Part shown: in pieces, positions 13,041 through 60,072 of the stretch | Position numbering within the stretch: position 1 is the first letter of the stretch | How the letters are laid out: each line of letters opens with the position of its first letter | Source: an uncultured Bacteroidales bacterium | GTDB lineage: Bacteria; Bacteroidota; Bacteroidia; Bacteroidales; UBA3824 | Assembly (NCBI GenBank): GCA_905234655.1 | Contig: CAJOJG010000009.1 | Location: 352-64,351, forward strand | Direction of reading: 5' to 3' | DNA: 64,000 nt | Position numbers and translations under genes: made by a program | Notes under the pieces: generated by a model | What the model was told of the DNA's origin: nothing | What the model saw: the letters and a program-made list of their open reading frames with translations, nothing else | The model's database searches: none

Positions 13041-13042
13041 AT

Positions 13043-13050: not shown

Positions 13051-13069
13051 CAAACAAAAATATTTGACC

Positions 13070-14780: not shown

Positions 14781-14792
14781 GGTCGTGGGGTG

Positions 14793-15100: not shown

Positions 15101-15214
15101 TTGTGATTGTTTTGCAAGGCAAAGTTAGCATATTTTTGTGATTTGCAAAAATCGTTTTCATGTTAACGAAAAAATTTTTTTCTAATTGTTTTTTTTATTT
15201 TGTAGAAAATGTAT

Positions 15215-15222
15215 TACATTTG
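15215..15222 (+). promoter_or_regulatory. -7 promoter box TACATTTG
   Basis: TAnnTTTG match 30 nt upstream of the ATG at 15252, preceded by an AT-rich tract. Confidence 0.45.
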
Positions 15223-15251
15223 TCCTCGAATAACAAAACTCTATTGTCATA

Positions 15252-17834: not shown

Positions 17835-17836
17835 GA

Positions 17837-44954: not shown

Positions 44955-45359
44955 TTATATCATCTTTAACGTCAACTGGCACCTCTTTCCGTCATAAAAC
45001 GCATCCAGCACCTCGGCAAATATCGAATTTGGCTCAATGGCATCGAAAAGCGTCATGCTTGAGCGAACTTTCATCGCGTCGATTCCACCGAGAATCTGCT
45101 TTGCGCTTTTGCCTTTGTGGGCGAGCAACGCCTCCGAAATCTCACGGAGTCGGGCGGACAGAGTTGGATTTTTGAGATATTCCTCAGCCTCCGCACGGCC
45201 ACGTATGCCGTATATTTCGCACATCTCGCTGCGGCCAAGCCCATGAAGTTGTGGAAAAATGTACCAAATCCAATGCCCCACCTTACATCCATTTTTGATT
45301 TCGGACAGGGCATCGGCATACTGCCATTCTTGAGCCTTGACAAATCTTTCTACGCCCAT
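44955..45359 (-). CDS. DUF1810-family protein
   Basis: RF..AQ...Y..AL.E...G.K..HW.WY.FPQ..GLG.S.....Y.I....A..YL..P.L..RL is the DUF1810 pattern as I recall it. Confidence 0.65.
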   Translation of the reverse strand: MGVERFVKAQEWQYADALSEIKNGCKVGHWIWYIFPQLHGLGRSEMCEIYGIRGRAEAEEYLKNPTLSARLREISEALLAHKGKSAKQILGGIDAMKVRSSMTLFDAIEPNSIFAEVLDAFYDGKRCQLTLKMI

Positions 45360-45362: not shown

Positions 45363-45950
45363 TTATGCATTGTACCTGATTTCTACTACGTTCCAGTTGA
45401 TGATGCTCCACAGACCAGCGATGTAGTCGGCGCGGCGGTTTTGATAGTCGAGATAGTATGCGTGTTCCCAAACGTCAAATGTCAAAAGCGGCTTGAGCCC
45501 CTTGCCGATAGTAGTGGCGGCGTTTGGCTCCTGGGTGATGAGAAGCTTGCCGGTTTTGTCCGACGAAAGCCATGCCCATCCCGACCCGAACAAGGTCGCC
45601 GCCTTCTGTGAAAACTCCTTCTTGAAGTTCTCAAAAGAGCCGAACTGTCCATCTATCGCCTTGGCAATATTGCCAGTCGGGACATTGTTTTCCGTCGGCG
45701 GCTTCAAGGCCTCGAAATACAGATTGTGGTTCAGGATTTGACCGGCATTGTTAAAAATCGCGCCCTCGCTCGTGGCGATAATCTCTACGAGCGACTTGTC
45801 CTCCAATCCACTGCCCGGCAGGAGGTTGTTAAGGTTGTTGACATAGCCCGCGAGGTGCTTTCCATGATGGAAACCTATGGTCTCGGCAGAAATCACCGGC
45901 GCAAGCGCGTCCGCAGCATACGGAAGTTTGATGAGTTGGAATGTTGCCAT
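45363..45950 (-). CDS. sodB: Fe/Mn-family superoxide dismutase
   Basis: LPY....L.P.IS.ET...HHGKH...YV.NLN, FNNAGQ..NH.LYF and DVWEHAYYLDYQN.R..Y. Metal specificity cannot be decided from the sequence by eye. Confidence 0.9.
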   Translation of the reverse strand: MATFQLIKLPYAADALAPVISAETIGFHHGKHLAGYVNNLNNLLPGSGLEDKSLVEIIATSEGAIFNNAGQILNHNLYFEALKPPTENNVPTGNIAKAIDGQFGSFENFKKEFSQKAATLFGSGWAWLSSDKTGKLLITQEPNAATTIGKGLKPLLTFDVWEHAYYLDYQNRRADYIAGLWSIINWNVVEIRYNA

Positions 45951-46090
45951 AATAATTCGGATTTTAGTTTTGTGCTAAATTACGGCAAAATTTTATATCT
46001 GCAAAATTTTTTTTTCTCCCGCCGCGAGATTTTTTTCCCTCAATCGGCGCAAATATTTATAACTTTACGTGTTTTCCGTGGTAAAAAACG

Positions 46091-46816
46091 CTACAGCACC
46101 TTCTCCATGAAGTACCGTATCTGCGGACGCCACCAGCACCAGTCGTGGGCGACGTCATAGCCCCAGTAGTCGAACCATGCGGGGACACCGTGGTCACAGA
46201 GTATTGTGTCGAGGCGGCGGGTCGAGGCGAGGAGGTCGTCTTCCCAGTTGCCCTGGCCTACACTGACAATTATGCGGCGGTTGCGGTACTCGTTCCAATA
46301 ATAATGGTCGCGGGGCATCCATTTGAGGTAGTCCTCCGGCGAGTTTGAATACACAAGCTCATCGGTGTATGAACCGAAGAAATAACTTGCATGGTACAGA
46401 CCGCTCTGCGCAATCAATGTGTCGAAAATGTCGGGGCGGCGGAAGAAGAAATTTGCGGAATGGAAACCGCCCATCGAGCATCCCGTCGAGATCAGGTGGC
46501 CACGGTCGCCAATCTCGCTGACAAGCTCGTCACAAATGTAACGGTACCACCTCTCGTGCTGCTCAATCCTCTTGCGGCAGTCCCAACTGCCACTGCTCCA
46601 AGACTCCGGGTCGATACTGTCACAGCAAACAAGGCGCAGCCGGCCACTTTCAATAAATCCGGCAAGTTCGTTGACCATTCCAAAATTCTCATAGTCGAAA
46701 AACCTTCCGTTCTGTGACGGGAAAACAAGCGCGGTCTTGCCGCCATGGCCATAGACCTTGTACTCCATGTCGCGGCCAAGGTTGTGGCTGTAATGTTTTT
46801 TATATTCTACTTTCAT
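46091..46816 (-). CDS. Esterase-family alpha/beta hydrolase (esterase D / S-formylglutathione-hydrolase-type family), paralog A
   Basis: 241 aa with the nucleophile elbow GCSMGG. It is about 50% identical by eye to the product of 52266-53015. Confidence 0.7.
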   Translation of the reverse strand: MKVEYKKHYSHNLGRDMEYKVYGHGGKTALVFPSQNGRFFDYENFGMVNELAGFIESGRLRLVCCDSIDPESWSSGSWDCRKRIEQHERWYRYICDELVSEIGDRGHLISTGCSMGGFHSANFFFRRPDIFDTLIAQSGLYHASYFFGSYTDELVYSNSPEDYLKWMPRDHYYWNEYRNRRIIVSVGQGNWEDDLLASTRRLDTILCDHGVPAWFDYWGYDVAHDWCWWRPQIRYFMEKVL

Positions 46817-46858
46817 AATGGCTGCAAAAATACAACATTTTTACATTCCTACCAAAAA

Positions 46859-48094
46859 TTATCGTTTGTCGTGTACGAACTTCACAAACTCCTCCACGTC
46901 GGAATATTCGTCGAGTTTGACAGTGAACATCTGGTTGCCCATCGCGCCGGAGAGGATTTCGGGCATACGCTCGCACATCACCATCCTGTCGCCGTAACGC
47001 TGGCGCACCTCGTCGTCCGAATGTACATAGTCATACACGTCACGCCTTGACGCGAAGGCGCAATAATACTCCTGCCGCCACGGCAACGAGAGCGCATTGC
47101 GTCCGCTGTGCTGGTACGCGCTGGCTTCCTGCGACTTGTCGTAGCATACCATGTCCGCCCATATCTTGTACACGTCGGTCGAGTGGGCATAGTCAATCAT
47201 GTCGGGAGTGTAGCCGCCGGCGGGTCGCATGTTGACTTCCAAAGCCACAAAGTCGCCTACATTGCCGAGGCCATCGCGGTCGCTGTCAAGCCTGAAAAAC
47301 TCCAAGTGGACAAAACGGCTCCTCACATTGAACGCCTCGACTGTGCGGCGGCCGATGGAGCGTAAGGAATCCGGGATTGTCTTGTCGACATAATACGAGA
47401 GGTCGAGCCGCTTGTTCACAATGTCCATTATGGACGGCGGCCATACCGTCATCGACTCGAACAATGGCTGTCCAAGCGAATTGACAATCGCGTCATACGA
47501 GCAGATGTCGCCTGTGATGAACTCCTCGATGACATAGTTGTTGACCTCGGCGACGGTCTCGTAGAAGTTTGACAACTCCTCGTTGTTGTGGATTTTGTGG
47601 GTGCCGCCCGCGCCGACGCCGATGTCGGGTTTTGCGATAAGCGGATAGCCGACCGTCGCGGCAAAATCCACCGCCTTGAACAGTCCGTCGGCAGCCTTCA
47701 ACTGCCTGGCTGTGGGGATATTGCCGAGATGGTAGTATTTTTTCATCTCCGACTTCTCCTTTATGGCGGTGATTTCGTTGGACTGTAGTCCAGTGGTCAC
47801 ATGGAAGTCGGTGCGGAGACGTGCGTCCTGCTCGAGCCAGTATTCATTGTTAGACTCTATCCAGTCAATCTTTCCGTACTTAAAGGCGAAGAACGCCACC
47901 GCACGGTACACTTGGTCATAGTTCTCAAGGTTGTCGACCTTGTAATACTCTGTCAAGGAGTTGCGTACCTCGGGGCTGAGGGCTTCGTATGGCGCGTCGG
48001 CAATGCCGAGGGTATTGACGCCGTTCTTCTTCAGCCTGTCGCAAAATTCCCAGTACGTGTGGGGAAAATGCGGGGATATGAATATGAAGTTCAT
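46859..48094 (-). CDS. ATP-grasp carboxylate-amine ligase, paralog 1
   Basis: 411 aa. YPLIAKPDIGVGAGGTHKI and VIEEFI.G followed by a LEVNMRP.GGY..D motif (ATP-grasp core). It is about 45-50% identical by eye to the product of 50245-51456. Confidence 0.7.
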   Translation of the reverse strand: MNFIFISPHFPHTYWEFCDRLKKNGVNTLGIADAPYEALSPEVRNSLTEYYKVDNLENYDQVYRAVAFFAFKYGKIDWIESNNEYWLEQDARLRTDFHVTTGLQSNEITAIKEKSEMKKYYHLGNIPTARQLKAADGLFKAVDFAATVGYPLIAKPDIGVGAGGTHKIHNNEELSNFYETVAEVNNYVIEEFITGDICSYDAIVNSLGQPLFESMTVWPPSIMDIVNKRLDLSYYVDKTIPDSLRSIGRRTVEAFNVRSRFVHLEFFRLDSDRDGLGNVGDFVALEVNMRPAGGYTPDMIDYAHSTDVYKIWADMVCYDKSQEASAYQHSGRNALSLPWRQEYYCAFASRRDVYDYVHSDDEVRQRYGDRMVMCERMPEILSGAMGNQMFTVKLDEYSDVEEFVKFVHDKR

Positions 48095-48120
48095 TGATTA
48101 TGGGGTTTTTAATTATGTTA

Positions 48121-48900
48121 CTACAAGTATGAATAGTCAATGTTTTTGTACTCCCAGTCGCGCTCGGGGCTGATGTACTCGACAGTCGTATGGACACCGC
48201 GCGCGACGAGCTTGCCATTCTTATACGCCAAGAGCCGTCGGAAGTCCACTAAGTGCCACGTGCCGTCGTCTTCGAGCGGAAGCGTCGAGAAGATTATTGT
48301 CCCGTTGCTTAACTGCTTGTAATTCAATGTGTCGGCGTAATTGGAATGTACATACATGACCTCGTTGTCCCATATCAGGAGGTTGATTTTATTGTCGTGG
48401 CTCAGGTGGTAGACCAAGCCGTCGAGCAGTGTGAAACGCTCCTCGAATGTCAGTGGCCGACGAGCCGAAGATTGCGCCACGTCAATAGTGGCGACGATAT
48501 GGAACAGTATGCGCTCCGAATCCGTCTGACCTTCCTGATAGTCACGGTACTTCTCAAGCTCCGGCGAGTTGAAAATAGTGCCGTTGTGCGCCAAAGTCCA
48601 GCACCGGCCCATGTTGTCGTGCTTGATGAACGGGTGGCAGTTTTCGTATGACATGTTGCCGATTGTGGCGAGGCGTATATGGGCGATTGCGTTGTCGATG
48701 AGGACAGGATGCTGGAGCCGCTGCTTGAGGTAATGGCTTCCGTTAGCCTTTATCGCCTCCTTCTCGAGCGACACTGAGTCGCCGTAAAAACATGCCAACC
48801 CCCATCCGTAGTCGTGCTTCTCGCTGTGGCTGTAAAAAGTCTTTAGGTATTCGTTGATTCTTATTTTTTTGTCACTGTTAATTCCAAATAGTTCACACAT
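48121..48900 (-). CDS. Class II (Ntn, N-terminal Cys) glutamine-amidotransferase-like protein, YafJ/EgtC-like
   Basis: MCELFG start (Cys2 nucleophile), GWG, HIRLAT.G.....NCHPF and W.LAHNG.I. Confidence 0.7.
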   Translation of the reverse strand: MCELFGINSDKKIRINEYLKTFYSHSEKHDYGWGLACFYGDSVSLEKEAIKANGSHYLKQRLQHPVLIDNAIAHIRLATIGNMSYENCHPFIKHDNMGRCWTLAHNGTIFNSPELEKYRDYQEGQTDSERILFHIVATIDVAQSSARRPLTFEERFTLLDGLVYHLSHDNKINLLIWDNEVMYVHSNYADTLNYKQLSNGTIIFSTLPLEDDGTWHLVDFRRLLAYKNGKLVARGVHTTVEYISPERDWEYKNIDYSYL

Positions 48901-50212
48901 TTCTGTCTCTGTTTTTTATAGATTCTGCCAGGACTTTGTCGGCAAAACCGCCGGCATATTCGCGGCTAATAATGCGTGCGTAGTTGTAATGCTCCGGGTC
49001 TTCGACCTTCTTGCGCTGGTAGGCAAGAATCTCGTTGACACGCTCGGTCTGGCCGGTGTCGATGCGGGAGAAGAACCACTCGATGCCGTTCAGGAGCTCG
49101 GCCGTAGCGTCGGCGATGCTCAAGGCGCGGCCATTCGGGTACATGATTTTTGTGTTTGCGGTGTCGAAATGGGCGGCGGACTTGAAATTCTGAATAGACT
49201 GGACTTGTCCCTTAGCGTCGAGAGGCTCATGCTCGCGGCTCGCCAAGTATGCCAAAAGCAACTGCATGAACTTCACGTCGCGGTCGTCGATGCCATATTC
49301 CGCAAGCGGATTGAGGTCTATCGGACGGAGCTCAATGTGGTTGATGCCCGAAGCGCGCAGCGTCTCGAGCTTGTTCTTGCCCTTGGGTTTGAGCCTTATG
49401 GGGTAGTACAGCTCCGACGGCGCGCTGATAAGTCCATTCTTGACATAATGCTCAATGCTGTCGGCGTAGCGGTTGATGTCCGAATAGTCGAGCGTCGGCA
49501 CAAAAAAGTTCCAATACCCAAGCTCCGAACACCTTACCGACGACATTCCCGAAAACACGGTCTCGCCCACCCTGCCACTGTCGAAATACGAACCGTCCAA
49601 GAGCGGGCTTGCCGCCGTCAATGCCACAATCACCCAGCCATATTTAAGGCAATTCTCGGCGAGGTCGAGGTAAATTTTGTCACAATGTCTTTGATATTCA
49701 GGCGTTTCTTCGCCCTTCTCGATATGTATGCCGGTCTCCATCTCATAATTTGTGCGCAGCAGGCCGCCACGGAACGAATAGTTGAAATGGATGCCAGAAA
49801 ACGCCATCTTGTAGCGGCCATACTTGTTAGAGAGGTAGTGGCGGTAGGTCGTCTTGCTGGAACTGTCGCCATAAAACTGCGCGACCGGGATGTCGTCCTC
49901 GCCATAGATTCGCGGGGGATTGCTCGACATCCACAGGGCCTCCTTTTGCGGCGACTGAGAGAGCGTGCGCTCGATGCGGCGGTGATGGCCGGCGAGTTCG
50001 TCTATCGCCTGCCGTCCCATCGGGTATATCGACGTGTTAATCTCCACCTGATTTTCACAGAAATCCCTCACGATATGGCTGTCGTCGACATCGAATGGGT
50101 GCTTCGTATGGCTCAATCGTCCGTCCTCAGTGACTCTCAGCGTCTCGCGCTCGAGTCCGAAATTGCCCGAAAGCAACAACTTCGCTATGTGTTCGTTTTC
50201 GGTATGTAGCAT
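48893..50212 (-). CDS. GshA-type glutamate-cysteine ligase family protein
   Basis: GLERETLRV..DG.L....HP, DF.E.Q.E..T and AQFYG.S.....YR..L.N.YG......SGIHFNYSF align by eye with E. coli GshA blocks. The stop overlaps the next gene's start in ATGTGTGA (8 nt). Confidence 0.7.
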   Translation of the reverse strand: MLHTENEHIAKLLLSGNFGLERETLRVTEDGRLSHTKHPFDVDDSHIVRDFCENQVEINTSIYPMGRQAIDELAGHHRRIERTLSQSPQKEALWMSSNPPRIYGEDDIPVAQFYGDSSSKTTYRHYLSNKYGRYKMAFSGIHFNYSFRGGLLRTNYEMETGIHIEKGEETPEYQRHCDKIYLDLAENCLKYGWVIVALTAASPLLDGSYFDSGRVGETVFSGMSSVRCSELGYWNFFVPTLDYSDINRYADSIEHYVKNGLISAPSELYYPIRLKPKGKNKLETLRASGINHIELRPIDLNPLAEYGIDDRDVKFMQLLLAYLASREHEPLDAKGQVQSIQNFKSAAHFDTANTKIMYPNGRALSIADATAELLNGIEWFFSRIDTGQTERVNEILAYQRKKVEDPEHYNYARIISREYAGGFADKVLAESIKNRDRNV

Positions 50213-50244
50213 GATATTTTTATAGTGGTTTTGAGGTTTATACT

Positions 50245-51456
50245 CTATTCTTGGACAACCCTTTTAGCCAGTATGAAGTCGCCGTCCTCGATGAGCGTCT
50301 CCTTCGTGTCAGCCTTCAAGATGAACACCTGCGCGCCCATTCCGCCCGAAATGCTTGGCGGCGGTGTTTTTTCGAGCAAAATCCGGCTGCCGAAACGTTG
50401 CCTGATGTCGTCTGCGGTGTGCAGGTAGTCCACACCCGCGCCACGGCCATAGTGTGTGACGTAACGCTTGAAGCCATAGTCACGGAAACTCCTGTTCTCG
50501 TCATACACGATGCTCTCCGCCCAAATCTGGTAGACATCGACATCGTATGCGTAGTTCATCTTGTCCGGGATATAGCCGCCCGGCGCGCGCATATTGACTT
50601 CGAGACCCACAATATCGCCCTTTTTTCCAAGTCCGGGCTTGTCGCTGTCGAGCCTGAAAAACTCAAAATGGAAGAAAGTCTGCTTTGCCGAGAAAGCCTT
50701 CACAGCCCTCTCCCCTACCGCCAACAAGTCCGACTGCTGCATATTGCGGGTATAGCTGATATTCTCGCCGTCACCGTCGAGCATTGCGAGCGGCGTGTGC
50801 TTCATGACCTGGCCGGTGCAGAAAAGGATATTGCCCTTGCTGTCCGTTATTCCGTCAAAAGTCTCCACATGCCCCGGCACAAACTCCTCCATTATATAAG
50901 AGCGTCCGTCGCCCTCTATCTGTCGAAGGACATCGTCAAGCTGCCTGGCGGTCTCGATTTTGTACGTATGAGCCGCACCGACACCGTGGTCAGGCTTGAC
51001 AATCAGCGGAAAGCCGACCATCTTAGAGAACTTCAGCGCACGTGTCTTAGTGTCCAACAAAAGCCAGTGCGCGGTCTTTATTCCGCCTTTTTCGTAGGCG
51101 TGCTTCATCTCCGATTTTAGCAAGACAGTGCGGAGCTCGTCGGGCCTCAAGCCGTTGTGGACATTAAAATCCTCCCTCAGCCGCGCCTCCAAGGGCAGCC
51201 AATACTCGTTCTGAGATTCCACAAAGTCAATCTTACCGTACTTAAAGGTATAGAAAGCCGCCGCCCTCATGACCTGGTCGTAGTCTTCGAGCGAATGGAC
51301 ATAGTAATACTCTGTCAATGAGCATTTTACGCTATTATCCAGATTGTCGTATGGACAATCGCCGATGCCCAAGACATTACATCCAAGTCTCTTAAGCCTG
51401 TCGCAAAAGTTGAAAAAGTGCAACGGGAAATTGGGCGACAAAAATATGACATTCAT
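50245..51456 (-). CDS. ATP-grasp carboxylate-amine ligase, paralog 2
   Basis: 403 aa. FPLIVKPDHGVGAAHTYKI, IMEEFV.G and LEVNMRAPGGYIPD. Confidence 0.7.
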   Translation of the reverse strand: MNVIFLSPNFPLHFFNFCDRLKRLGCNVLGIGDCPYDNLDNSVKCSLTEYYYVHSLEDYDQVMRAAAFYTFKYGKIDFVESQNEYWLPLEARLREDFNVHNGLRPDELRTVLLKSEMKHAYEKGGIKTAHWLLLDTKTRALKFSKMVGFPLIVKPDHGVGAAHTYKIETARQLDDVLRQIEGDGRSYIMEEFVPGHVETFDGITDSKGNILFCTGQVMKHTPLAMLDGDGENISYTRNMQQSDLLAVGERAVKAFSAKQTFFHFEFFRLDSDKPGLGKKGDIVGLEVNMRAPGGYIPDKMNYAYDVDVYQIWAESIVYDENRSFRDYGFKRYVTHYGRGAGVDYLHTADDIRQRFGSRILLEKTPPPSISGGMGAQVFILKADTKETLIEDGDFILAKRVVQE

Positions 51457-51477
51457 GATTATGATAATGAAGCGAAA

Positions 51478-52227
51478 TCAGTTTTCCCACAAGAACCACA
51501 TCCAAGTCGGGACTTCGTGTTGCCAGCTTGCCTCGTTATGGTCGCCGCCCTCGTTCTTATAAAGGTACGTCTTCGCGCCTTTCTGCTGTACGAGCCACTC
51601 AATCTCGCGTATGCGGTTCTCGATGCCCCAGTTATGACGCTGCTCGACGCTGCCCCACGAGAAGAAGATGCGAGTGTCGAGGTTAAGCACGCCAGTGTTA
51701 ATCTCATACCTGAAAGCGTCCATCGCCGGAGCGATAGCCGGAGAAATCGCCGCCGACTTCGAGAATATGTGGTTAAAATGGATTGCGCCGTAGAGAGCCA
51801 TCATGCCGCCCATCGAATATCCGGCGATTGCAGTCGCCTCGCGGAACGGCACAGTGCGGTAATTATTGTCGATATGCGGCTTGAGGGAATCCTCAATCCA
51901 TTTGAAAGTCTGGTAGCCAGTGCCGGGTATGTGTCCGTAGTAACTGCTGTCGAGTTCATACGGGCAATACTCGCACACACGCTTCCAGTCGTCGTGGGCA
52001 CATTCCATGCCGACGACAATGATTTTTTTCCAATAATGGTCAAGGAACTCCTTAAGACCCAACGACTTGCCGAATGTAGCGTCGCCGTCGAAGAAGAGGT
52101 TATGGCCGTCGAACATATACAATACTGCATACCGCTCGTCGGTGTTGTAGTACTCGTCAGGCAGATAGAGGTGAATCCTGCGGTTCTCTCCCGCCGCGCC
52201 GTACCAAAAATCGAATTTTTCTACCAT
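51478..52227 (-). CDS. Esterase-family alpha/beta hydrolase, type B
   Basis: R.HLYLP..Y......Y.VLYMFDG.N.F, GYSMGG and a C-terminal His region. It is distinct from the other two esterases. Confidence 0.7.
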   Translation of the reverse strand: MVEKFDFWYGAAGENRRIHLYLPDEYYNTDERYAVLYMFDGHNLFFDGDATFGKSLGLKEFLDHYWKKIIVVGMECAHDDWKRVCEYCPYELDSSYYGHIPGTGYQTFKWIEDSLKPHIDNNYRTVPFREATAIAGYSMGGMMALYGAIHFNHIFSKSAAISPAIAPAMDAFRYEINTGVLNLDTRIFFSWGSVEQRHNWGIENRIREIEWLVQQKGAKTYLYKNEGGDHNEASWQHEVPTWMWFLWEN

Positions 52228-52265
52228 GTTTGATTATATTAATTACCTTTGTTAAGTTCACAATG

Positions 52266-53015
52266 TTAAGCCGCCTTCCTGATGTCGTTATCGGCAATCT
52301 TGCCAAAGAAATACGCCGCCTGCCGACGCCACCAGTAGAAGTCATGGCTCACGTCCTTGCCCCAGAAGTCGAACCAAGTGTCGAGCCCGAACTTTTCGAC
52401 GACATTCCTGAGCCTTGCCGTGGAGTTGCCGGTGACCCTCTCGTAGTTGCCCTGACCGCAGCAGAAAACCAAGGGCTTGTTCCTGTATTTCTCAGCGATA
52501 AGGCTGTTCTCGCTCATTCCAGCGAGGAAGTCGAGCGGCGAGTTGCGGTATATCAGCTCGTTGTCGTACCCTGGGAAGAAATAGTCGGCGTGGAACAGTC
52601 CACTGAGCGACACAATCCCGTCGAACAGGTCGGGACGGCGGAAGAAGAAATTTCCCGCGTGGTAGCCGCCCATGCTGCATCCTGCGACTATCAACTGCTC
52701 GCCACGGCTTACCTCGGGGACAAGCTCGCTGACGATATAGTTGAACCACTGCTCGTGCCTGCGGATACGTGCGTCATAATCGCCGCCGGTAAGGCTCCAC
52801 GTCTCGACATCGATGCTGTCACAACAAATCAGACGGAACTCACCAGCCTCAATCATCGGGGCCATGACATCGATCATACCGTTGTCCTCCCACTCGTAAA
52901 ATCTCTGATCCTGCGACGGGAACACCAATACGCCACGGCCGCTTTCGCCGTATGTCTTGTACTCAACCTCCCTTTCGAGATTGACGCTCCATTTCTTGTG
53001 ATATTCTATCTTCAT
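52266..53015 (-). CDS. Esterase-family alpha/beta hydrolase, paralog A'
   Basis: 249 aa with GCSMGG. It is collinear with 46091-46816 and is the first gene of the operon. Confidence 0.7.
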   Translation of the reverse strand: MKIEYHKKWSVNLEREVEYKTYGESGRGVLVFPSQDQRFYEWEDNGMIDVMAPMIEAGEFRLICCDSIDVETWSLTGGDYDARIRRHEQWFNYIVSELVPEVSRGEQLIVAGCSMGGYHAGNFFFRRPDLFDGIVSLSGLFHADYFFPGYDNELIYRNSPLDFLAGMSENSLIAEKYRNKPLVFCCGQGNYERVTGNSTARLRNVVEKFGLDTWFDFWGKDVSHDFYWWRRQAAYFFGKIADNDIRKAA

Positions 53016-53045: not shown

Positions 53046-53053
53046 CAAATTTC
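53046..53053 (-). promoter_or_regulatory. Near-consensus -7 box GAAATTTG for the seven-gene operon
   Basis: Reverse complement of CAAATTTC, located 31 nt upstream of the ATG at 53015. It has one mismatch to TAnnTTTG. Confidence 0.3.
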
Positions 53054-53379
53054 GACATTCTACATATTCTATCCAAGGAAACAGAAACAAATGGTCAATT
53101 TTTCTACAAGAACGTCGCGCAATGGAATTATATTCGCCACACTCGCTTTATATGCGACATTCGCCGAATAGTTTTCCAAAACGCTGCGCAAAATTAACGA
53201 GTGGATTTTTCAATCGGCAACGAAAATAATGCGGTTTTTCAACTTTATAAGTGACATTTTTCACTTTTCAGAATCATACAGCGATCCACACGACAAAACG
53301 AAATAATGCCAAGTAATAAAAAAGGTTAAAAACGACCTCATGCGACTCCGTCAATATTGGAAATTAAAGTCAGATTCAA

Positions 53380-53387
53380 TAACTTTG
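53380..53387 (+). promoter_or_regulatory. -7 promoter box TAACTTTG
   Basis: TAnnTTTG match 24 nt upstream of the ATG at 53411. Confidence 0.4.
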
Positions 53388-53410
53388 CACGAAACATCAT
53401 CAGACAAAAC

Positions 53411-54265
53411 ATGACAATAATCGAAAACAAAGAATACGAGGGCGAGCGTCCTCTTTATTGCACGAGCGACCTGATTCTCCACAATGTAACCATCCACGCG
53501 GGCGAATCGGCGTTGAAGGAGACCCGCAACATCACCGCCGAAAACTGCACTTTCGAGGGCAAATATCCGTTTTGGATTACCGACGGCTTCAATGTCCGCA
53601 ACTGCACTTTCAGCCCCGGCGCACGTGCCGCCCTGTGGTATTCCAACGACCTCGTGATGACCGACACGATAATCGAGGCTCCAAAAATGTTCCGCGACAG
53701 CCGCCGCCTGTGCCTCCAAAACGTCCAAATCCCGGAGGCGCAGGAGACTTTTTGGCACTGCGACGACATCACCATCGAAAACGTGCAGGCGGACAATGCG
53801 CCGTACATCTTCATGCACTGCAACAATCTGAAAATCAACAACTACACCCAAAACGGCAACTACTCGTTCCAATACTGCAAAAACGTGGAAATCCGAAACT
53901 CGAAGATTTACTCCAAGGACGCATTTTGGAACAGCGAGAACGTTACGGTATATGATTCTGAAATCATCGGCGAATACCTCGCGTGGCACAGCAAAAACGT
54001 CCGCCTCGTCAACTGTCTGATTGGCGAGACGCAGCCATTGTGCTACTGCGACGGCCTCGTCCTCGAAAACTGCCGCCTGCGCGACGACGCAGACCTGGCT
54101 TTTGAATATTCGGACGTCAACGCCACAATCACCGGCCACGTCCCGAGCATCAAAAACCCGCGCACCGGCCACATCAAGGCTGATACCGTCGGCGAAATCA
54201 TCATCGACCAAAACATCAAGCCGCCCGCCGACTGCGTGATTCAATGCATAATGCACAATGCATAA
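53411..54265 (+). CDS. Right-handed beta-helix repeat protein (DUF3737-like)
   Basis: Repeated short coils (NVTIH.GES.LKE..NI...NC.F.GKYP.W......V.NC.F). The start was set at MTIIENKEY. The C-terminal CIMHNA* is encoded by the heptamer repeat element. Confidence 0.6.
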   Translation: MTIIENKEYEGERPLYCTSDLILHNVTIHAGESALKETRNITAENCTFEGKYPFWITDGFNVRNCTFSPGARAALWYSNDLVMTDTIIEAPKMFRDSRRLCLQNVQIPEAQETFWHCDDITIENVQADNAPYIFMHCNNLKINNYTQNGNYSFQYCKNVEIRNSKIYSKDAFWNSENVTVYDSEIIGEYLAWHSKNVRLVNCLIGETQPLCYCDGLVLENCRLRDDADLAFEYSDVNATITGHVPSIKNPRTGHIKADTVGEIIIDQNIKPPADCVIQCIMHNA

Positions 54266-54291
54266 TGCATAATTGGGCATCCGCCGGAAGC
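54243..54291. repeat. Heptamer-palindrome element, half copy
   Basis: AATGCATAATGCACAATGCATAATGCATAATTGGGCATCCGCCGGAAGC. It contains the stop codon of the beta-helix gene. Confidence 0.8.
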
Positions 54292-54320
54292 AAATAAGAA
54301 TTGTTATTGAAAAAAATCTC

Positions 54321-54384
54321 ATAATGCACAATGCAAGCATCAGCCGAATGGCAATTATGAATTATGCATTATGAATTATGCATT
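54321..54384. repeat. Heptamer-palindrome element, full hairpin copy
   Basis: The sequence is ATAATGCACAATGCA-AGCATCAGCCGAATGG-CAATTATGAATTATGCATTATGAATTATGCATT. It ends 8 nt before the ATG at 54393. Confidence 0.8.
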
Positions 54385-54392
54385 GAAAAAAA

Positions 54393-55556
54393 ATGAATTT
54401 TGACGAGAAAATAGTACGTCGCGGCTCCAACTGTTATAAATGGGACGTGGCAAGCGAGGACGTGATTCCGATGTGGATTGCGGACATGGACTTCAAGACC
54501 GCGCAACCGATAATCGACGCGCTACAAGAGCGTGTGGCGCACGGCGTGTTTGGCTACGTGAAGCCGCCAAAAGAATATTTCGAGGCGGTCTGCGGATGGT
54601 TTGGGACGCGGCACGGATGGCACATCGAGCCAAAAGAAATAATCTACACAAGCGGTGTCGTGCCGGCTATCTCGGCGATAATCAAGGCGTTGACGATGCC
54701 TGGCGACAGAGTTTTGCTGACGACGCCGGTCTATAACTGTTTCTTCTCCTCAATCCGCAACAACGGCTGCCAAGTGGCGACTTCAAGCCTCAAAGCCGAC
54801 GAAAACGGACGCTATTCGATTGATTTTGAGGATTTTGAGGAACAATGCAAAGACCCGAAGACGAGGGTTTTCATACTCTGCAACCCCCACAACCCGACAT
54901 CGAGGGTCTGGACACGCGACGAACTTTCGCGGATGGCGCAGATTTGCAAGGACAACGACGTTTTCGTCATCTCCGACGAAATCCACTGCGAAATTATGAT
55001 GCCCGGCTTCCAGTACACGCCGTTTGGCACGCTTGACGACAGCATCACAGGCAATTACGCCGTCTGCACCTCGCCGTCAAAAGCCTTCAACATCGCCGGC
55101 CTCCAAATCGCCAACATCATCTGCCGTTGCCCCAAGACCCGCCGCAAAATCGACCGCGCAATCAACATCAACGAGGTTTGCGACGTCAATCCATTCGGCG
55201 TAATCGCGCTTATGACAGCCTACACCGACCCGCGTTGCAAGGAGTGGCTCGACGACCTCAACGATTACATCCACGGCAACTACCTCGCCGCCAAGGAGTT
55301 AATCGAAAGGCTAATCCCAACCGCGACCATCACGCCGCAGGAAGGCACGTACCTGATGTGGGTCAATTTTCACTCGCTCGTCGAAAACTCCCACAAAATG
55401 GAGGACGGCCTGATAGCCAACGCAAAAGTTTGGGTCAACCCCGGCACATTATACGGCGACGATGGCGAACACTGCATGAGGATTAATTTGGCGACACAGC
55501 GAGATAGAGTTGTGGCAGGCGTGGAGAGAGTGTGTGAGTATTTTGGAGGAAAATGA
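54393..55556 (+). CDS. MalY/PatB-type PLP-dependent C-S lyase (class I/II aminotransferase fold)
   Basis: R.GSNCYKWD, W.ADMDF....I..AL, LCNPHNPT.RVW, SDEIH and SPSKAFN.AG (the PLP Lys). Confidence 0.8.
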   Translation: MNFDEKIVRRGSNCYKWDVASEDVIPMWIADMDFKTAQPIIDALQERVAHGVFGYVKPPKEYFEAVCGWFGTRHGWHIEPKEIIYTSGVVPAISAIIKALTMPGDRVLLTTPVYNCFFSSIRNNGCQVATSSLKADENGRYSIDFEDFEEQCKDPKTRVFILCNPHNPTSRVWTRDELSRMAQICKDNDVFVISDEIHCEIMMPGFQYTPFGTLDDSITGNYAVCTSPSKAFNIAGLQIANIICRCPKTRRKIDRAININEVCDVNPFGVIALMTAYTDPRCKEWLDDLNDYIHGNYLAAKELIERLIPTATITPQEGTYLMWVNFHSLVENSHKMEDGLIANAKVWVNPGTLYGDDGEHCMRINLATQRDRVVAGVERVCEYFGGK

Positions 55557-55561: not shown

Positions 55562-57139
55562 TCATTTGACTTTCTCCCTCTTTACACCTTCCAATTCCAC
55601 CTCATACTTGATGTCGGTTGCGTCTTTGTCATAATTGATTCCTAACAGCACAATCTCGCGCGAAAAGCGTCGGAGTTTTTTCGGATATTCCTTGCGCTTT
55701 ATCTGGTCGAGCGCGCCCTTTGCGGACTTGTCCCACTTCAATTCGACCACAATCGCAGGGAACACCGAGCCAGGAATCGGCACAAAAACCATGTCGGCAA
55801 AGCCTTTTCCCGTTGGAAATTCGCGGTAAATCTCGTAGTCGCTGATTGCGGAATAATACGCAAGTTTTATTGCGCACGCCATCGAATTTTCGTCGTTGAA
55901 CTCCCAGAACGACGTCGCCTCGCGGTGGTATTCGCCGATGGCCTTTGCGACGTACCTTTTGTCCTTGTTGATTGTGGCCTGCAAGAGCCTTGTGGATTGT
56001 TCCAACGCCATCGAGAGGTAGCTCCAGCCACAGTTGCGAAGCGAATTGCGAAACTCCTCGGCGACCTCCGTGTTGGGGATTCTGACGCTCTTTGTCTTCG
56101 GGTCGTATGACAGATAGCCGAGGTGCGCCAAGAGAGTCAGCACGTCGTTGTAATCCTTGATGTCGTGCATGTTGTTGCGGAACGAGGTGATGTCTATCAG
56201 GACGCTCTCGCCATTGAGCATTTTTGTAACAAGCGGTTTGAGATTGTCGGTGTCGTGAGAGATGTAATGCTCAATCGTCGTGTAGAGCGCGGTCTTTCCC
56301 CAATAACTTCCGTAACTTCTGTCTATCACACTGCTTGACACGGAATTAGGATTGAACATCGACTTCTCGTTGCCAATGATGTAGCCGTCGTATGAGTGTT
56401 TCATGCGCGGAAAACTCATCTTGTATTTATTGCACAAAGCCTTGACTTCGTCTTTCGTGAAACCATAATACGTGGCGGTGTTTTTCGGGTCAATGACGCT
56501 GTACTCCTTAAAATTGTTGAGCGCGGACTGTGTTTTGTATTTTATTATCGGCAAAATTCCCGTCATATAGACCAACAGGAAAAGTTTGTTTGCAATGTTG
56601 GACTTGAACATCGCCCTTAGGAAATCAACGTATTCCTCGCGCACCGGCGCCTCGTCGTCCCTAACGAGCATGTCCCATTCGTCGATGATGAGAATGAAAC
56701 GGTCGCCGGTCTTGGTGTTAATTTCAGCGAGGGCCTTGTTCAGCGATTCGTTTTCCACAAGGTCGGGGTACGATTGTTTCAAATCGGCAATTATGTCTTT
56801 TTGCGCGTCCTTGACGACAGTTTCGGGCTTGCAAGTCGCAAAACGATTCCAGTCGATGTAAATCGTCGGATACTTGTTGAGGTGCTTTTTGTAGTCGGGC
56901 GACTTGGTGATTTTGAGGCCGGCGAACAGTTCGTCCGATTTTGACGAGCGGTCATAATACGCATACGCCATTTGTGCCGCCACAGACTTGCCAAAACGCC
57001 GTGGACGGGACACACAGATATATTTGTTTGGACTGTCGATTCTCTCATTCAAAAAGTTCAACAAATCCGATTTGTCAACGAAGTCAGAGTTCCTGACACT
57101 CCTGAAATCATAATCGCCGTAGTCTATAAATTCGCTCAT
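55562..57139 (-). CDS. AAA-ATPase-like protein with a C-terminal PD-(D/E)XK nuclease-like domain (DUF1703-type family)
   Basis: F.D.S.LL.FLN........YICVSRPRRFGKS (P-loop) and ILIIDEWD. The C-terminal end has GKGFADMVF.P......A.VVELKWD.SA..AL.QI..K.Y. Confidence 0.7.
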   Translation of the reverse strand: MSEFIDYGDYDFRSVRNSDFVDKSDLLNFLNERIDSPNKYICVSRPRRFGKSVAAQMAYAYYDRSSKSDELFAGLKITKSPDYKKHLNKYPTIYIDWNRFATCKPETVVKDAQKDIIADLKQSYPDLVENESLNKALAEINTKTGDRFILIIDEWDMLVRDDEAPVREEYVDFLRAMFKSNIANKLFLLVYMTGILPIIKYKTQSALNNFKEYSVIDPKNTATYYGFTKDEVKALCNKYKMSFPRMKHSYDGYIIGNEKSMFNPNSVSSSVIDRSYGSYWGKTALYTTIEHYISHDTDNLKPLVTKMLNGESVLIDITSFRNNMHDIKDYNDVLTLLAHLGYLSYDPKTKSVRIPNTEVAEEFRNSLRNCGWSYLSMALEQSTRLLQATINKDKRYVAKAIGEYHREATSFWEFNDENSMACAIKLAYYSAISDYEIYREFPTGKGFADMVFVPIPGSVFPAIVVELKWDKSAKGALDQIKRKEYPKKLRRFSREIVLLGINYDKDATDIKYEVELEGVKREKVK

Positions 57140-57151
57140 AATTGTCCGCTT

Positions 57152-57301
57152 TTAATTGTCCATGCGAAGCGTGGGTTTGCCTTGCTCAAGGTCGCGGACA
57201 AAACACAAGCCGGCACCCGATTTCATCGCCAATTGCTGTTGAGTAAGACCGTTTTCCTTTCGTAACGTCTTGACTACCAATGATAATTTGGTCCTTTGCA
57301 T
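57152..57301 (-). CDS. 49-aa XRE-family helix-turn-helix protein (absent from the ORF track)
   Basis: Encodes MQRTKLSLVVKTLRKENGLTQQQLAMKSGAGLCFVRDLEQGKPTLRMDN. The classic HTH_3 pattern is LR...GLTQ..LA...G.....V...E.GK. The stop is 12 nt before the ATPase start. Confidence 0.65.
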   Translation of the reverse strand: MQRTKLSLVVKTLRKENGLTQQQLAMKSGAGLCFVRDLEQGKPTLRMDN

Positions 57302-57324
57302 CCTGTTTTATATTAGTTCGGATG

Positions 57325-57332
57325 CAAAATTA
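57325..57332 (-). promoter_or_regulatory. -7 promoter box TAATTTTG for the HTH-ATPase pair
   Basis: Reverse complement of CAAAATTA, 24 nt upstream of the ATG at 57301. Confidence 0.4.
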
Positions 57333-57386
57333 CATATTTTTCATCAATTTATATCACATCGGATATATTAAAAAAAAAATTTCGGT

Positions 57387-59279
57387 CTATTTCCCCATAA
57401 AATTTTCCTCGTAATATTCCACAAACGCCTCCGAAACCCTCTTGACACCGGCGGGCGTGGGGTAATCGCCGCTGAAATACCAGTCGCCGGAATGGTTGGG
57501 GATGGCGGCGTGTAGGCCGTCGATGGTCTGGAAAACAATCTCAATTTCGGCACTAACGTCCGACGGGCGAAGCAATTCAACAATCTTGCGGCTGATGTCG
57601 TCGTCAGAAAAACCGGCGTAGATGTCCTTCACATAATTTTGCATCGAGGTCTTGGGCAAGTTGCGCTGGGCGAGGCACTTGTCATAGACGCTGCGTATGA
57701 TGTCGAGTTCGCCACGGTCGCGGCGCAATTCTATCGCCGCCTTGAACGCAATGAACTCGCTCAGGTGGCTCATGTCGATGCCATAGTAATCGGGGTAACG
57801 GATTTGGGGCGCGCTACTTACAATCACAATCTTCTTCGGGTGAAGGCGGTCGAGGATGCGGATTACGCTCTCGCGCAGCGTCGTGCCGCGCACAATGGAA
57901 TCGTCGATGATTACAAGATTGTCCCCGCAGGGGCGCAGGCTGCCGTAGGTGATGTCATAGACGTGGGCGGCAAGGTCGTTGCGGGAATTGTTTTCGGTGA
58001 TGAAAGTGCGCAGTTTGATGTCTTTGAGCGCAACTTTTTCGCTGCGGATGTAGGTGTGGCAAATAGCCTCCAACTCGTCCCGCGTCGGCGCGTGTCCGAG
58101 CGCGAGGATTTGGTCTATCTTCTTGTCGTGGTGGTACTTGTTGAAACCTTCAAGCATCCCGTAATACGCGACTTCGGCGGTGTTTGGGATGAACGAAAAC
58201 ACGGTGTTTTTGATGTCGTAATTGATGGCTCTGAGGATGGGATTGACGAGCAATTCGCCCAACGCCTTGCGCTCGCGGTATATCTCGGCGTCGGACCCAC
58301 GGCTAAAATATATCCTCTCAAACGAACACGACTTCTTCTCGCCGGGCGTCCTGAGATTGGCGACCACGACCTCGCCGCTGCGGCTGATGGTGATTGCGTC
58401 GCCGGGCATAAGTTCCTGCACGTCATCGACTTCGAGATTGAATGTGGTCTGGATTACTGGACGTTCAGACGCCAAGACCACAATCTCGTCGTCCTTATAA
58501 TAATACGCAGGGCGGATTCCCCACGGGTCGCGAACCGCAAAACACTCGCCGCTGCCCGTAAAACCGCACATCACGTACCCGCCGTCCCAGTTTTTGGACG
58601 AATCCTTGAGCATTTTGCGGATTTGGCGGTGGATGTTGTCGTCGATGTATTTGGTAACGTCAACGCCGGAAAGGTTGCAGCACCGCGCCTCGTCAAAGAG
58701 CCGCTCGCTCTCGCAGTCGAGCCGGTGGCCGAGTTGTTCGAGGATGATGTAAGTGTCTGACTTAAAGCGTGGATACTGTCCCTCTGCGGCTATCTCGTCG
58801 AAGATTTCCTCAAAATTCGCCATATTGAAATTGCCGCAGATGCAGAGGTTTCGCGCCCGCCAGTTGTTGCGCCGGGCAAACGGGTGGACGTAATCCAAGC
58901 CGCTCTTGCCCGTGGTAGAGTACCTCAAATGCCCGAGGTAAATCTCGCCGACAAATTTCTTGTTTTTGCGCACATAGTCAACGTCGCGTTCCTGAGCGGG
59001 CGTGAGGTCGCCGAAATTGGAATTGACGGTATGGAAAATGTCGGTGATTGCGCCCGCGCCGAGCGCCCTCTCGCGAAACATGTATTCCTCGCCCGGCTCG
59101 CAGTCGAGTTTGAGACAGCCGATTCCCGCCGCCTCCTGGCCACGGTTGTGCTGTTTTTCCATCATCAAGTAGAGCTTGTTCAATGGGTAACGCCACGTGC
59201 CGTACTTCTCCTGAAAGTACTCCAAGGGCTTCAACAGGCGTATCATCGCCACGCCACATTCGTGTTTCAAAGGTTCCAT
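57387..59279 (-). CDS. purF: Amidophosphoribosyltransferase, long Bacteroidetes form (class II GATase + PRTase)
   Basis: MEPLKHECGVAMI (N-terminal Cys nucleophile after a short propeptide), NRGQEAAG, HLRYST.G and a PRPP-binding loop VIIDDSIVRGTT. Confidence 0.85.
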   Translation of the reverse strand: MEPLKHECGVAMIRLLKPLEYFQEKYGTWRYPLNKLYLMMEKQHNRGQEAAGIGCLKLDCEPGEEYMFRERALGAGAITDIFHTVNSNFGDLTPAQERDVDYVRKNKKFVGEIYLGHLRYSTTGKSGLDYVHPFARRNNWRARNLCICGNFNMANFEEIFDEIAAEGQYPRFKSDTYIILEQLGHRLDCESERLFDEARCCNLSGVDVTKYIDDNIHRQIRKMLKDSSKNWDGGYVMCGFTGSGECFAVRDPWGIRPAYYYKDDEIVVLASERPVIQTTFNLEVDDVQELMPGDAITISRSGEVVVANLRTPGEKKSCSFERIYFSRGSDAEIYRERKALGELLVNPILRAINYDIKNTVFSFIPNTAEVAYYGMLEGFNKYHHDKKIDQILALGHAPTRDELEAICHTYIRSEKVALKDIKLRTFITENNSRNDLAAHVYDITYGSLRPCGDNLVIIDDSIVRGTTLRESVIRILDRLHPKKIVIVSSAPQIRYPDYYGIDMSHLSEFIAFKAAIELRRDRGELDIIRSVYDKCLAQRNLPKTSMQNYVKDIYAGFSDDDISRKIVELLRPSDVSAEIEIVFQTIDGLHAAIPNHSGDWYFSGDYPTPAGVKRVSEAFVEYYEENFMGK

Positions 59280-59352
59280 TTGCAGTGATTGTTTACGTCT
59301 GCAAAATTATCAAAATAATGGATGGAAAACGGTACGTGAAATGCGTAAAAGA

Positions 59353-60067: not shown

Positions 60068-60072
60068 GGTTA

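Follow-up and report, generated by a model that had tools for sequence, protein, structure and literature searches.

What would a bacterium make, and take apart again, with an operon that encodes ligases and hydrolases side by side? The question is raised by seven minus-strand open reading frames (ORFs) at positions 46091-53015 of a 64,000-nucleotide (nt) stretch of contig CAJOJG010000009.1 (assembly GCA_905234655.1), from an uncultured Bacteroidales bacterium; the whole stretch is called the window below. Our answer, to which we give a probability of roughly 0.45, is that the proteins constitute three ligase/hydrolase pairs that make and cleave small sulfur-amino-acid peptides as part of the cysteine and methionine economy of the cell. 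A preliminary description of the window had suggested that the cluster builds and trims a gamma-glutamyl peptide. This is still the best reading of the core of the operon, a GshA-like ligase and the hydrolase Ntn, and its link to sulfur has been strengthened by the neighbouring genes, T-box leaders and tRNA-Cys genes of related loci, whereas the accompanying link to oxidative stress has not stood up.

A coupled ligase/hydrolase pair and its partners

In the direction of transcription the genes encode EstA', EstB, AG2, the GshA-like protein, Ntn, AG1 and EstA, with gaps of 38, 21, 32, -8, 26 and 42 nt. ORF coordinates and sequence agree with the dense packing reported before, including the 8-nt stop/start overlap ATGTGTGA at the GshA-like/Ntn junction (48893-48900, minus strand), an arrangement that would favour translational coupling. 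We interpret the seven genes as a single operon and the pair of dismutase and DUF1810 genes that follows as a separate unit, with read-through between them possible. Long plus-strand ORFs antisense to operon genes (e.g. 48854-50209) we take to be spurious, solely because the minus-strand genes that they overlap have strong homologues. The families proposed at the outset, a GshA-type ligase, two ATP-grasp ligases, an Ntn hydrolase and esterase-family hydrolases, were all recovered in Pfam, NCBIfam, Protein Data Bank (PDB) and fold searches; in NCBIfam, none of the seven proteins attains an equivalog cut-off.

The GshA-like protein (439 residues; 48893-50212) is a homologue of glutamate-cysteine ligases (GCLs) of the GshA/GshF type and matches Pfam family PF04262 with 196.2 bits (cut-off 27, E 8.7e-58). 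In NCBIfam it comes closest to the N-terminal half of GshF, the bifunctional glutathione synthetase of Streptococcus and Pasteurella (NF002688; 256 bits, below the cut-off of 425), and its score against the gshA equivalog TIGR01434 is also below threshold (146.3, cut-off 393.3). Relatives of known structure are GshF (3ln7, 3ln6) and E. coli GshA (1v4g). In a profile alignment to 1v4g, E21, E23, E57, H142, E294 and R296 correspond to E. coli E27, E29, E67, H150, E328 and R330, which we take to be Mg2+ ligands and catalytic residues; Y123/R124, R227, Y233 and Y269 correspond to Y131/R132, R235, Y241 and Y300, presumably the acceptor (cysteine) pocket. The six residues of the first set are invariant in a 16-sequence alignment. 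Metal- and glutamate-binding residues are thus retained in the aligned positions, and acceptor residues too, with conservation in at least 95% of 78 homologues. Judged from its sequence, the protein appears to be a distinct subfamily of GshA-type ligases that would be equipped to make a gamma-glutamyl amino acid, most likely gamma-glutamylcysteine (gamma-Glu-Cys). All members of the subfamily that carry a name in the databases are called 'hypothetical protein'.

In a genome scan with the GshA-like protein, at least 588 species-level genomes, from bacteria of the gut and rumen, contained a relative. The best 80 loci belong to Bacteroidales, Lachnospiraceae, Oscillospiraceae and others, among them the cultured strains Anaerobutyricum hallii DSM 3353 and Lachnospiraceae bacterium 3-1; we examined 78 non-redundant loci, and individual loci are designated here by L numbers. 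Of the 78 loci, 51 have Ntn no further than 5 kb from the GshA-like gene; at this distance an ATP-grasp gene is found in 29, an EstA-type gene in 17 and an EstB-type gene in 14. GshA-like and Ntn genes are adjacent in about two thirds of the loci; where an ATP-grasp gene is present, it usually lies immediately 5' of the GshA-like gene, and most Firmicute loci have the GshA-like gene and Ntn without it. The genes of the operon co-occur widely in other genomes, and the pattern points to the GshA-like/Ntn pair as the core.

Ntn (259 residues; 48121-48900) is a stand-alone class II amidotransferase-like hydrolase of the GATase_4 family with an N-terminal cysteine (PF13230, 109.3 bits, cut-off 23; PDB entry 1te5, E 4.9e-14). 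M1-C2, R76, N106-G107 and D127 are conserved in at least 95% of 59 homologues, and the score against the EgtC equivalog TIGR03442 is 35.7 (E 5.5e-9), below the cut-off of 218.65. The identical 8-nt overlap between the GshA-like and Ntn genes recurs in 16 other loci, and in 18 loci the gap is 0 nt. An exhaustive search with Ntn collected 1402 representatives (E up to 1e-3), including two fusions to GCL-type domains, which are rare. In P0404 (700 residues), Ntn is followed by a GshA-like domain; the precomputed Pfam annotation gives GATase_4 and Glu_cys_ligase, and the ligase part is 29% identical to the GshA-like protein of the window over 428 residues (E 4e-50). In P0459 (717 residues; L092 438-2591), Ntn is followed by a domain 46% identical to a family that we call c11. 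Taken together with the translational coupling, these fusions show that Ntn is likely to work as a unit with a ligase of the GCL type.

The c11 family itself is unannotated (460 residues, e.g. L056 8599-9978) and located beside or between Ntn and the GshA-like gene in nine Firmicute loci. Pfam and NCBIfam searches at E up to 0.001 returned no match for c11, with plant-type GCL (E 0.04) and GCS2 (E 0.25) as faint hits. A relationship to the GshA-like family was considered and rejected (hhalign probability 0.07). We think that c11 is probably an undescribed carboxylate-amine ligase.

The two ATP-grasp proteins are AG1 (411 residues; 46859-48094) and AG2 (403 residues; 50245-51456), the latter encoded immediately 5' of the GshA-like gene. 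The identity of about 45-50% first estimated by eye for the two paralogue pairs of the operon is right for EstA and EstA' (50% over 240 residues) and slightly too high for AG1 and AG2 (43% over 412 residues). AG1 passes the cut-off of PF13535 (28.7 bits, cut-off 27), and AG2 stays below all ATP-grasp cut-offs in Pfam; EstA' likewise falls just below every Pfam cut-off, with weak matches. Though below threshold, AG2 and EstA' are clear homologues of an ATP-grasp protein and a hydrolase that do pass. K154, E190, E191, E265, E286, N288 and R290 of AG2 are conserved in 33 AG2-type sequences, and an alignment of ATP-grasp proteins that includes AG2 (alignment A2) has an invariant set K155, E190, E191, E265, E286, N288 and R290 (Lys, the Glu-Glu hinge, the Glu/Glu-x-Asn Mg ligands and Arg). 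AG1 orthologues with 70-87% identity are common in Bacteroidales.

By sequence, AG1 matches RizA in the PDB (4wd3, E 9e-5). In a Foldseek search with the predicted AG1 structure (pLDDT 66.6), the top four matches were 4wd3, 3wnz, 3vmm and 3vot (E 1e-18 to 2e-14, TM score 0.35-0.40). The L-amino-acid ligases RizA, YwfE/BacD and BL00235 rank first, with PurT, PurK and biotin carboxylases close behind. The preliminary description had proposed a comparison of the ATP-grasp proteins with GshB, GshF and cyanophycin synthetase, and a likeness to these is not borne out by the fold matches: GshB, the ATP-grasp half of GshF, cyanophycin synthetase and LdmS are all missing from the top 50 Foldseek matches of the AG1 model, a sequence search of the PDB with the neighbouring ATP-grasp protein did not match 3ln6 or 3ln7, and the sequence matches to the proposed relatives are weak (7ta5, E 0.11). 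Going by these low-scoring fold matches, AG1 and AG2 may be L-amino-acid (dipeptide) ligases.

Three serine hydrolases complete the operon. EstA (241 residues; 46091-46816) belongs to the esterase D/Ag85/CE1 fold group, and its paralogue EstA' (249 residues; 52266-53015) is an alpha/beta hydrolase with a GCSMGG nucleophile motif and an HD motif; S114, H224 and D225 (EstA numbering) are invariant in alignment A3 of the two types. EstB (249 residues; 51478-52227) is a serine hydrolase of the PF00756 'putative esterase' family and has no detectable sequence similarity to EstA. Against PF00756 (cut-off 22), EstB scores 71.2 bits, EstA 30.3 and EstA' 18.4. The G136-x-S138-x-G140 motif of EstB, D184 and H230 are conserved in at least 95% of 19 sequences, and its relatives by sequence in the PDB are bacillibactin and IroE-type esterases and feruloyl esterases.

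The predicted structure of EstA (pLDDT 84) matches the feruloyl esterases BT_4077 and Bacint_04212, Ag85C and esterase D with TM scores of 0.6-0.69. The hydrolases resemble the esterase D/S-formylglutathione hydrolase, Ag85 and CE1 members of PF00756 in their alpha/beta-hydrolase subgroup, the GxSxG motif and the catalytic histidine, and differ from them in an identity of only 12-19% and in their scores against the FghA equivalog TIGR02821 (EstB 24.3, cut-off 281.7; EstA and EstA' unmatched). The earlier assignment to esterase D and S-formylglutathione hydrolase therefore holds for the PF00756/fold group, whereas esterase D is one of several equally good fold matches, with feruloyl esterases and Ag85C ranked level with it or above it. 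Going by the model, hydrolase, thioesterase, peptidase and acyltransferase roles would all be possible, with no subfamily favoured.

The nested order of the seven genes recurs in other Bacteroidales with protein identities of 51-87%: it is complete in L006, L007 and L009, split by an insertion in L010, and represented by six of the seven genes in L012 and L014, while L024 and L019 have the two modules in tandem rather than nested. The arrangement is far beyond chance. A trio EstA'-AG1-EstA stands free in other Bacteroidales (L090, L087), and a quartet EstB-AG2-GshA-Ntn is found in Oscillospiraceae (L029, L040, L049; about 50-62% identity). Orthologues of AG1 and AG2 in other genomes are 60-87% identical to them, as against 43% between AG1 and AG2, so the paralogy is old, and the operon is a merger of an older trio and an older quartet, with the quartet nested inside the trio. 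The proposal that an esterase and ATP-grasp module had been duplicated around the core is rejected on the same grounds, namely the closer orthologues elsewhere and the free-standing trio and quartet.

Sulfur amino-acid genes and regulatory elements in related loci

Of the 78 loci, 38 have at least one sulfur-amino-acid gene no more than 5 kb away from the GshA-like gene. The cystathionine gamma-synthase/lyase family is represented in 22 loci, PatB in 18, CysK in 13 and the methionine type of ATP-binding cassette (ABC) transporter in 18. Firmicute neighbours also include MetNIQ-type and cystine-type ABC transporters, Rrf2 (IscR/CymR-like) and LysR regulators, MnmA and a ThiF-rhodanese protein. 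In many Firmicute loci, a Cys_Met_Meta_PP family gene (c3), PatB, the GshA-like gene and Ntn occur in fixed order.

T-box leaders precede the operon in three Oscillospiraceae loci (L029, L040, L049), with 102-118 bits against a gathering score of 93. All three have the specifier loop GAA-N-AUG-G, with a varying flanking base, and a bulge UGGU that would pair with an A73 discriminator; from their alignment, we infer a methionine specifier in each. In L029 and L040 the T-box is followed by c3-PatB-EstB-AG-GshA-Ntn and then an ABC transporter; in L049 it is followed by an SDF-family transporter and EstB-AG-GshA-Ntn-c3-PatB. An SDF-family (sodium:dicarboxylate/amino-acid) symporter directly 5' of an Est/ATP-grasp module is found twice, in L049 (6752-7993) and in the Bacteroidaceae locus L088 (5604-6803), the two being 30% identical. 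The SDF transporter may deliver the substrate of the module.

Genes for tRNA-Cys(GCA) make up nine of the 16 tRNA genes across all loci. They lie on the coding strand, within sulfur-gene clusters that have the GshA-like/Ntn pair, in L047 (12224-12293), L059 (7040-7109), L060 (9115-9186), L072 (13627-13696), L073 (5999-6068), L074 (9060-9131), L076 (9115-9186), L083 (15218-15287) and L090 (4993-5065), and in L060, L074 and L076 the tRNA gene is immediately 5' of Ntn. A dedicated copy of tRNA-Cys beside cysteine-metabolism genes is unusual.

Some ATP-grasp/Est modules that lack the GshA-like/Ntn pair also have sulfur genes next to them: O-acetylhomoserine sulfhydrylase, ThiS, ThiF, DsrE, TusA and JAB in L086, and PatB with O-acetylhomoserine sulfhydrylase in L087. 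In L088 the module comes after a GNAT gene and the SDF transporter gene.

A separate observation concerns several Lachnospiraceae loci, where nitrogenase-like genes follow CysK and tRNA-Cys downstream of the pair (L083 16232-20020; L047 about 12300-18306; L059, L072 and L073). The set comprises a NifH-type ATPase, two Oxidored_nitro subunits, a Nitro_FeMo-Co protein and a radical SAM protein, and we presume that it may be a sulfur salvage system of the methylthio-alkane-reductase type.

What the operon may make and cleave

The favoured reading, of paired synthesis and cleavage of sulfur-amino-acid peptides, can be set out in four steps. First, the conserved residues suggest that the GshA-like protein would activate the gamma-carboxyl group of glutamate with ATP and attach cysteine, or an amino acid resembling cysteine, to it; the product would be a gamma-glutamyl dipeptide. 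Second, AG1 and AG2, to judge by their fold, would form alpha-peptide bonds, either extending the gamma-glutamyl dipeptide or making separate dipeptides, as LdmS makes Asp-Met. Third, Ntn, produced in fixed ratio with the GshA-like protein, would remove the gamma-glutamyl group in the manner of EgtC and Dug3, a step suggested by its residues, the coupling and the fusions. Fourth, and this is the weakest step, the three serine hydrolases might cleave or transfer the ATP-grasp products. Overall, cysteine would be kept in a shielded and less reactive form, a carrier or store that the cell assembles and breaks down as needed and from which the reactions of the adjacent C-S lyase and of transsulfuration are supplied. 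In Firmicutes at least, expression is, in this best explanation, tied to methionine or cysteine limitation. What the sequences show is gene structure, conservation, catalytic residues, fusions, and the genomic and regulatory setting; which substrates are used, which way the net flux runs and what the esterases do is inferred.

Each component comes from a well-known enzyme family, and there are precedents for a ligase coupled to its cognate hydrolase. In Staphylococcus aureus, hmrA and ldmS encode an M20D Met-X dipeptidase and an ATP-grasp L-Asp-L-Met ligase that are co-transcribed under CymR/CodY/S-box control, and the authors raise the paradox of a ligase that consumes a scarce amino acid (PMC9486568). 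The operon would have in common with hmrA/ldmS a putative ATP-grasp L-amino-acid ligase, a candidate peptide-cleaving partner, a link to sulfur-amino-acid regulators and the same paradox; it differs in that its hydrolases are of the alpha/beta serine type and not M20 metallopeptidases, and in having three pairs instead of one. Yeast Dug2/Dug3 cleave gamma-Glu-Met and glutathione as sulfur sources, Dug3 releasing methionine or Cys-Gly (PMC7617739). GspSA (glutathionylspermidine synthetase/amidase) is a fusion of synthetase and amidase with 'conflicting' activities, in which the product builds up once the amidase cysteine is oxidised (PMC6272389), and trypanothione synthetase-amidase is likewise reported to be a fused synthetase/amidase (PMC2427367). 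As in GspSA, a Cys-nucleophile amidase is coupled in the operon to the ligase that would make the bond it cleaves, and P0404 and P0459 mirror the layout; the CHAP amidase and Gsp synthetase folds are, however, unrelated to Ntn and GCL. Redox control of the Ntn cysteine would, by this analogy, be speculation. Ligases accompanied by a hydrolase for what they make, as proposed three times over for the operon, and as seen once in hmrA/ldmS and in fused form in GspSA, hint at a general and poorly understood means of buffering reactive amino acids.

Several observations weigh against this reading. A ligase and a hydrolase for its own product that are co-expressed look futile unless one of them is regulated. 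About a quarter of the loci have the GshA-like gene without an adjacent Ntn, and in L089 and L090 AG/Est modules stand alone without sulfur genes nearby. Residue Q144 of E. coli GshA is replaced in the GshA-like protein by a methionine (M136) that is invariant in the family, so specificity may differ. The AG1 model is mediocre (pLDDT 66.6, TM score about 0.4), the methionine assignment of the T-box specifier is read from an alignment, and the adjacency of PatB to the operon is not conserved among close relatives. An Rfam search at gathering thresholds matched no family, riboswitch and T-box included, in the whole window, and no riboswitch or T-box was found in nine Bacteroidales loci.

The best of the competing explanations is that the operon makes a glutathione-like thiol, gamma-Glu-Cys-X, as a redox buffer tied to the superoxide dismutase encoded downstream; the GshA-like and ATP-grasp proteins would then be a split GshF, and the hydrolases would provide turnover. 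GshF is a fusion of GshA with an ATP-grasp domain like that of D-Ala-D-Ala ligase, whereas the GshA-like protein of the operon is a separate 439-residue protein. The two are alike in fold, Pfam family and metal, glutamate and acceptor residues. The N-terminal half of GshF is what the GshA-like protein most resembles, an ATP-grasp gene (in 29 of 78 loci) usually lies immediately 5' of it, which recalls the GshF fusion, and in the window the dismutase gene is only 140 nt downstream. The protein departs from GshA and GshF in its sub-cut-off NCBIfam scores, its Ntn partner and the Q144 to methionine replacement. Set against the explanation is the ATP-grasp neighbour, which resembles L-amino-acid ligases, with GshB and the C-terminal half of GshF outside the top 50 folds. 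Moreover, most Firmicute loci dispense with the ATP-grasp gene, four of the seven proteins are hydrolases, the dismutase is not adjacent in other loci and is separated from EstA by a terminator-like hairpin, and regulatory and neighbourhood signals favour methionine and cysteine supply over oxidants. We consider this explanation unlikely.

Somewhat less likely again is a logic similar to that of ergothioneine synthesis, in which the cystathionine gamma-synthase-like c3 would transfer the thiol of gamma-Glu-Cys, in place of free cysteine, to an activated acceptor of the homoserine type; Ntn would then take off the glutamate, and PatB would break the C-S bond, yielding homocysteine for methionine. 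In the ergothioneine pathway, a GCL makes a gamma-glutamyl thiol compound from which a stand-alone GATase_4 Ntn hydrolase, EgtC, removes the gamma-glutamyl group, which is the scheme of the operon core; EgtA belongs to the GCS2 family, distinct from GshA-type GCLs. A GCL, an Ntn hydrolase and a pyridoxal-phosphate (PLP) C-S lyase are the classes of EgtA, EgtC and EgtE, and the association of PatB with relatives of the operon is comparable to the place of EgtE. The fixed order of c3, PatB, GshA-like gene and Ntn in many Firmicute loci, the methionine-type T-box in three loci and the PatB gene near the operon in the window also fit. However, the PLP enzyme would have to accept gamma-Glu-Cys, c3 and PatB are mostly non-adjacent in Bacteroidales, the ATP-grasp/esterase pairs are left without a role, and ordinary transsulfuration requires no protection. 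Unlike the ergothioneine pathway, the operon has no EgtB or EgtD homologue: sulfoxide synthase and histidine methyltransferase types were unmatched in Pfam and NCBIfam among the seven proteins and the dismutase, DUF1810 and DUF3737 proteins.

It is improbable, in our estimate, that Ntn is a true glutaminase and the pair a glutamine amidotransferase, with ammonia passed from glutamine to a GCL/GS-fold ligase that amidates a carboxylate, by analogy with asparagine synthetase B but with another kind of synthase. P0404 and P0459 do have the order of N-terminal Ntn and C-terminal ligase seen in all class II amidotransferases, Cys1, Arg, Asn-Gly and Asp constitute the glutamine-binding set, and the translational coupling is tight. 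Since an Ntn domain is obligatorily N-terminal in fusions, the domain order is uninformative. The tyrosine and arginine residues that hold the acceptor are conserved in at least 95% of 78 sequences, which is unexpected with ammonia as the nucleophile; GshA-like genes exist without an adjacent Ntn; and the characterised GATase_4 members EgtC and Dug3 are gamma-glutamyl amidases.

Least probable is purely catabolic salvage of imported glutathione, gamma-glutamyl peptides and other peptides or esters for their sulfur, or else a small-peptide natural product of the bacilysin or rhizocticin type: peptides taken up by the cell might be broken down by Ntn and the serine hydrolases, transporters of the ABC and SDF types adjoin modules in L029, L040, L049 and L088, and the top folds of AG1 are antibiotic-pathway ligases, yet catabolism does not need three ATP-consuming ligases with intact active sites, and a natural product is at odds with a cluster without export or resistance genes, with intergenic gaps of 21-42 nt that exclude a precursor peptide (no graspetide precursor ORF was found in them) and with a spread inside core sulfur-metabolism operons of at least 588 species, PADLOC giving no matches.

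Returning to paired synthesis and cleavage, one could go further and suppose that gut anaerobes (Bacteroidales and Clostridia) use gamma-Glu-Cys, or a peptide built on it, as their working form of cysteine; the coupled ligase and Ntn would load and unload the gamma-glutamyl group, sulfur would pass to C-S lyase and transsulfuration for methionine under limitation, and a redox or thiol switch would be provided by Cys1, the catalytic residue of the hydrolase, after the example of GspSA. We regard this extended version as doubtful. If true, it would amount to an unrecognised gamma-glutamyl-dependent branch of sulfur amino-acid metabolism and would provide a candidate low-molecular-weight thiol for anaerobes that lack glutathione. 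The hosts are strict anaerobes for which glutathione synthesis is not known. Should the pair make and cleave peptides of the gamma-Glu-Cys type, there would be a regulated gamma-glutamyl thiol pool in organisms thought to be without glutathione, with consequences in the gut for the toxicity of cysteine, the uptake of sulfur, the synthesis of methionine and perhaps the tolerance of oxygen. These are small, soluble enzymes, and the hypotheses lend themselves to direct tests in vitro.

In a full-text literature search we found no functional assignment of the cluster or of the GshA-like/Ntn pair, in keeping with the earlier statement that no characterised pathway of this composition was known; a paper on the cysteine regulon of Clostridium perfringens mentions only the fused gshAB. 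In the searched databases, named members are 'hypothetical' or carry a generic family name. The widely conserved combination of genes, and its tie to sulfur amino acids in gut anaerobes, appear to be undescribed.

Flanking signals and neighbours in the window

Upstream of EstA' lies a promoter-like element on the minus strand (53046-53077), consisting of CTTGG (53073-53077), a 19-nt spacer and GAAATTTG (53046-53053), and ending 30 nt before the EstA' ATG. We take this layout, CTTGG-N19-GAAATTTG, to fit the Bacteroidetes -33/-7 promoter consensus. CTTGG-N19-(T/G)AnnTTTGCA also precedes the EstA' orthologues in L006, L009, L010, L011, L012, L019, L086 and L087. The shorter motif TAnnTTTG is enriched in the window generally, with 54 matches observed as against 31.7 expected. 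A palindrome, TAGAA-N-TTCTA, 5' of the Bacteroidales promoters was considered as a common operator and dropped, as its occurrence in 7 of 12 loci is not significant (shuffle mean 2.8, maximum 8). At the other end of the operon, a terminator-like hairpin with a 10-pair stem lies over the EstA stop codon and is followed by GCGTTTTTTA (46082-46119, minus strand), an element identified by consensus match only.

The gene 140 nt downstream of EstA encodes an Fe/Mn superoxide dismutase (45363-45950, minus strand), which we judge to be a neighbour in a separate unit. Three nt after it comes a DUF1810 gene (44955-45359, minus strand; 180 bits); the two are likely to be a two-gene unit in which a known enzyme is paired with a domain of unknown function. 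Among the other loci examined, none showed a dismutase, and its place directly after EstA is taken by a Peptidase_S51 gene in L009 (14358-15107) and in L005 (19695-20414; the same gene in L010). With the adjacency unconserved, another gene in its position in relatives and the hairpin at the EstA stop codon, we rejected the dismutase as a member of the system, and with it the connection to oxidative stress that had been drawn from its position. The Peptidase_S51 family includes, we believe, aspartyl dipeptidase E and cyanophycinase, and its presence after EstA is a further hint of dipeptides as the currency of the system.

On the other side, a gene for a PatB-family C-S lyase (54393-55556, plus strand; TIGR04350, 397 bits, cut-off 340) lies 1.4 kb upstream of the operon in divergent orientation, and is a possible functional associate outside it. 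Together with a DUF3737 gene (409 bits) it occupies 53357-55556 on the plus strand, sharing a 340-nt intergenic region with the operon. Conserved linkage of DUF3737 and PatB to the seven genes was rejected, the adjacency being found in none of the other Bacteroidales seven-gene loci. In L001 a shorter DUF3737 gene is called, and a -7-like box, TAACTTTG, lies immediately in front of its start, at 53380-53387.

A defence system was also considered and rejected, PADLOC having returned no defence-system matches. Beyond PatB, the gene calls of L001 give an AAA-ATPase_like/PDDEXK_9 protein (55562-57139, minus strand) and a 630-residue protein (about 57387-59279, minus strand) with only faint class II amidotransferase matches. 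Within about 55562-60200 on the same strand are a nucleotidyltransferase/HEPN pair and a PIN-domain protein, which resemble toxin-antitoxin modules. The insertion of about 5 kb that splits the operon in L005/L010 contains a homologue of the PDDEXK_9 protein.

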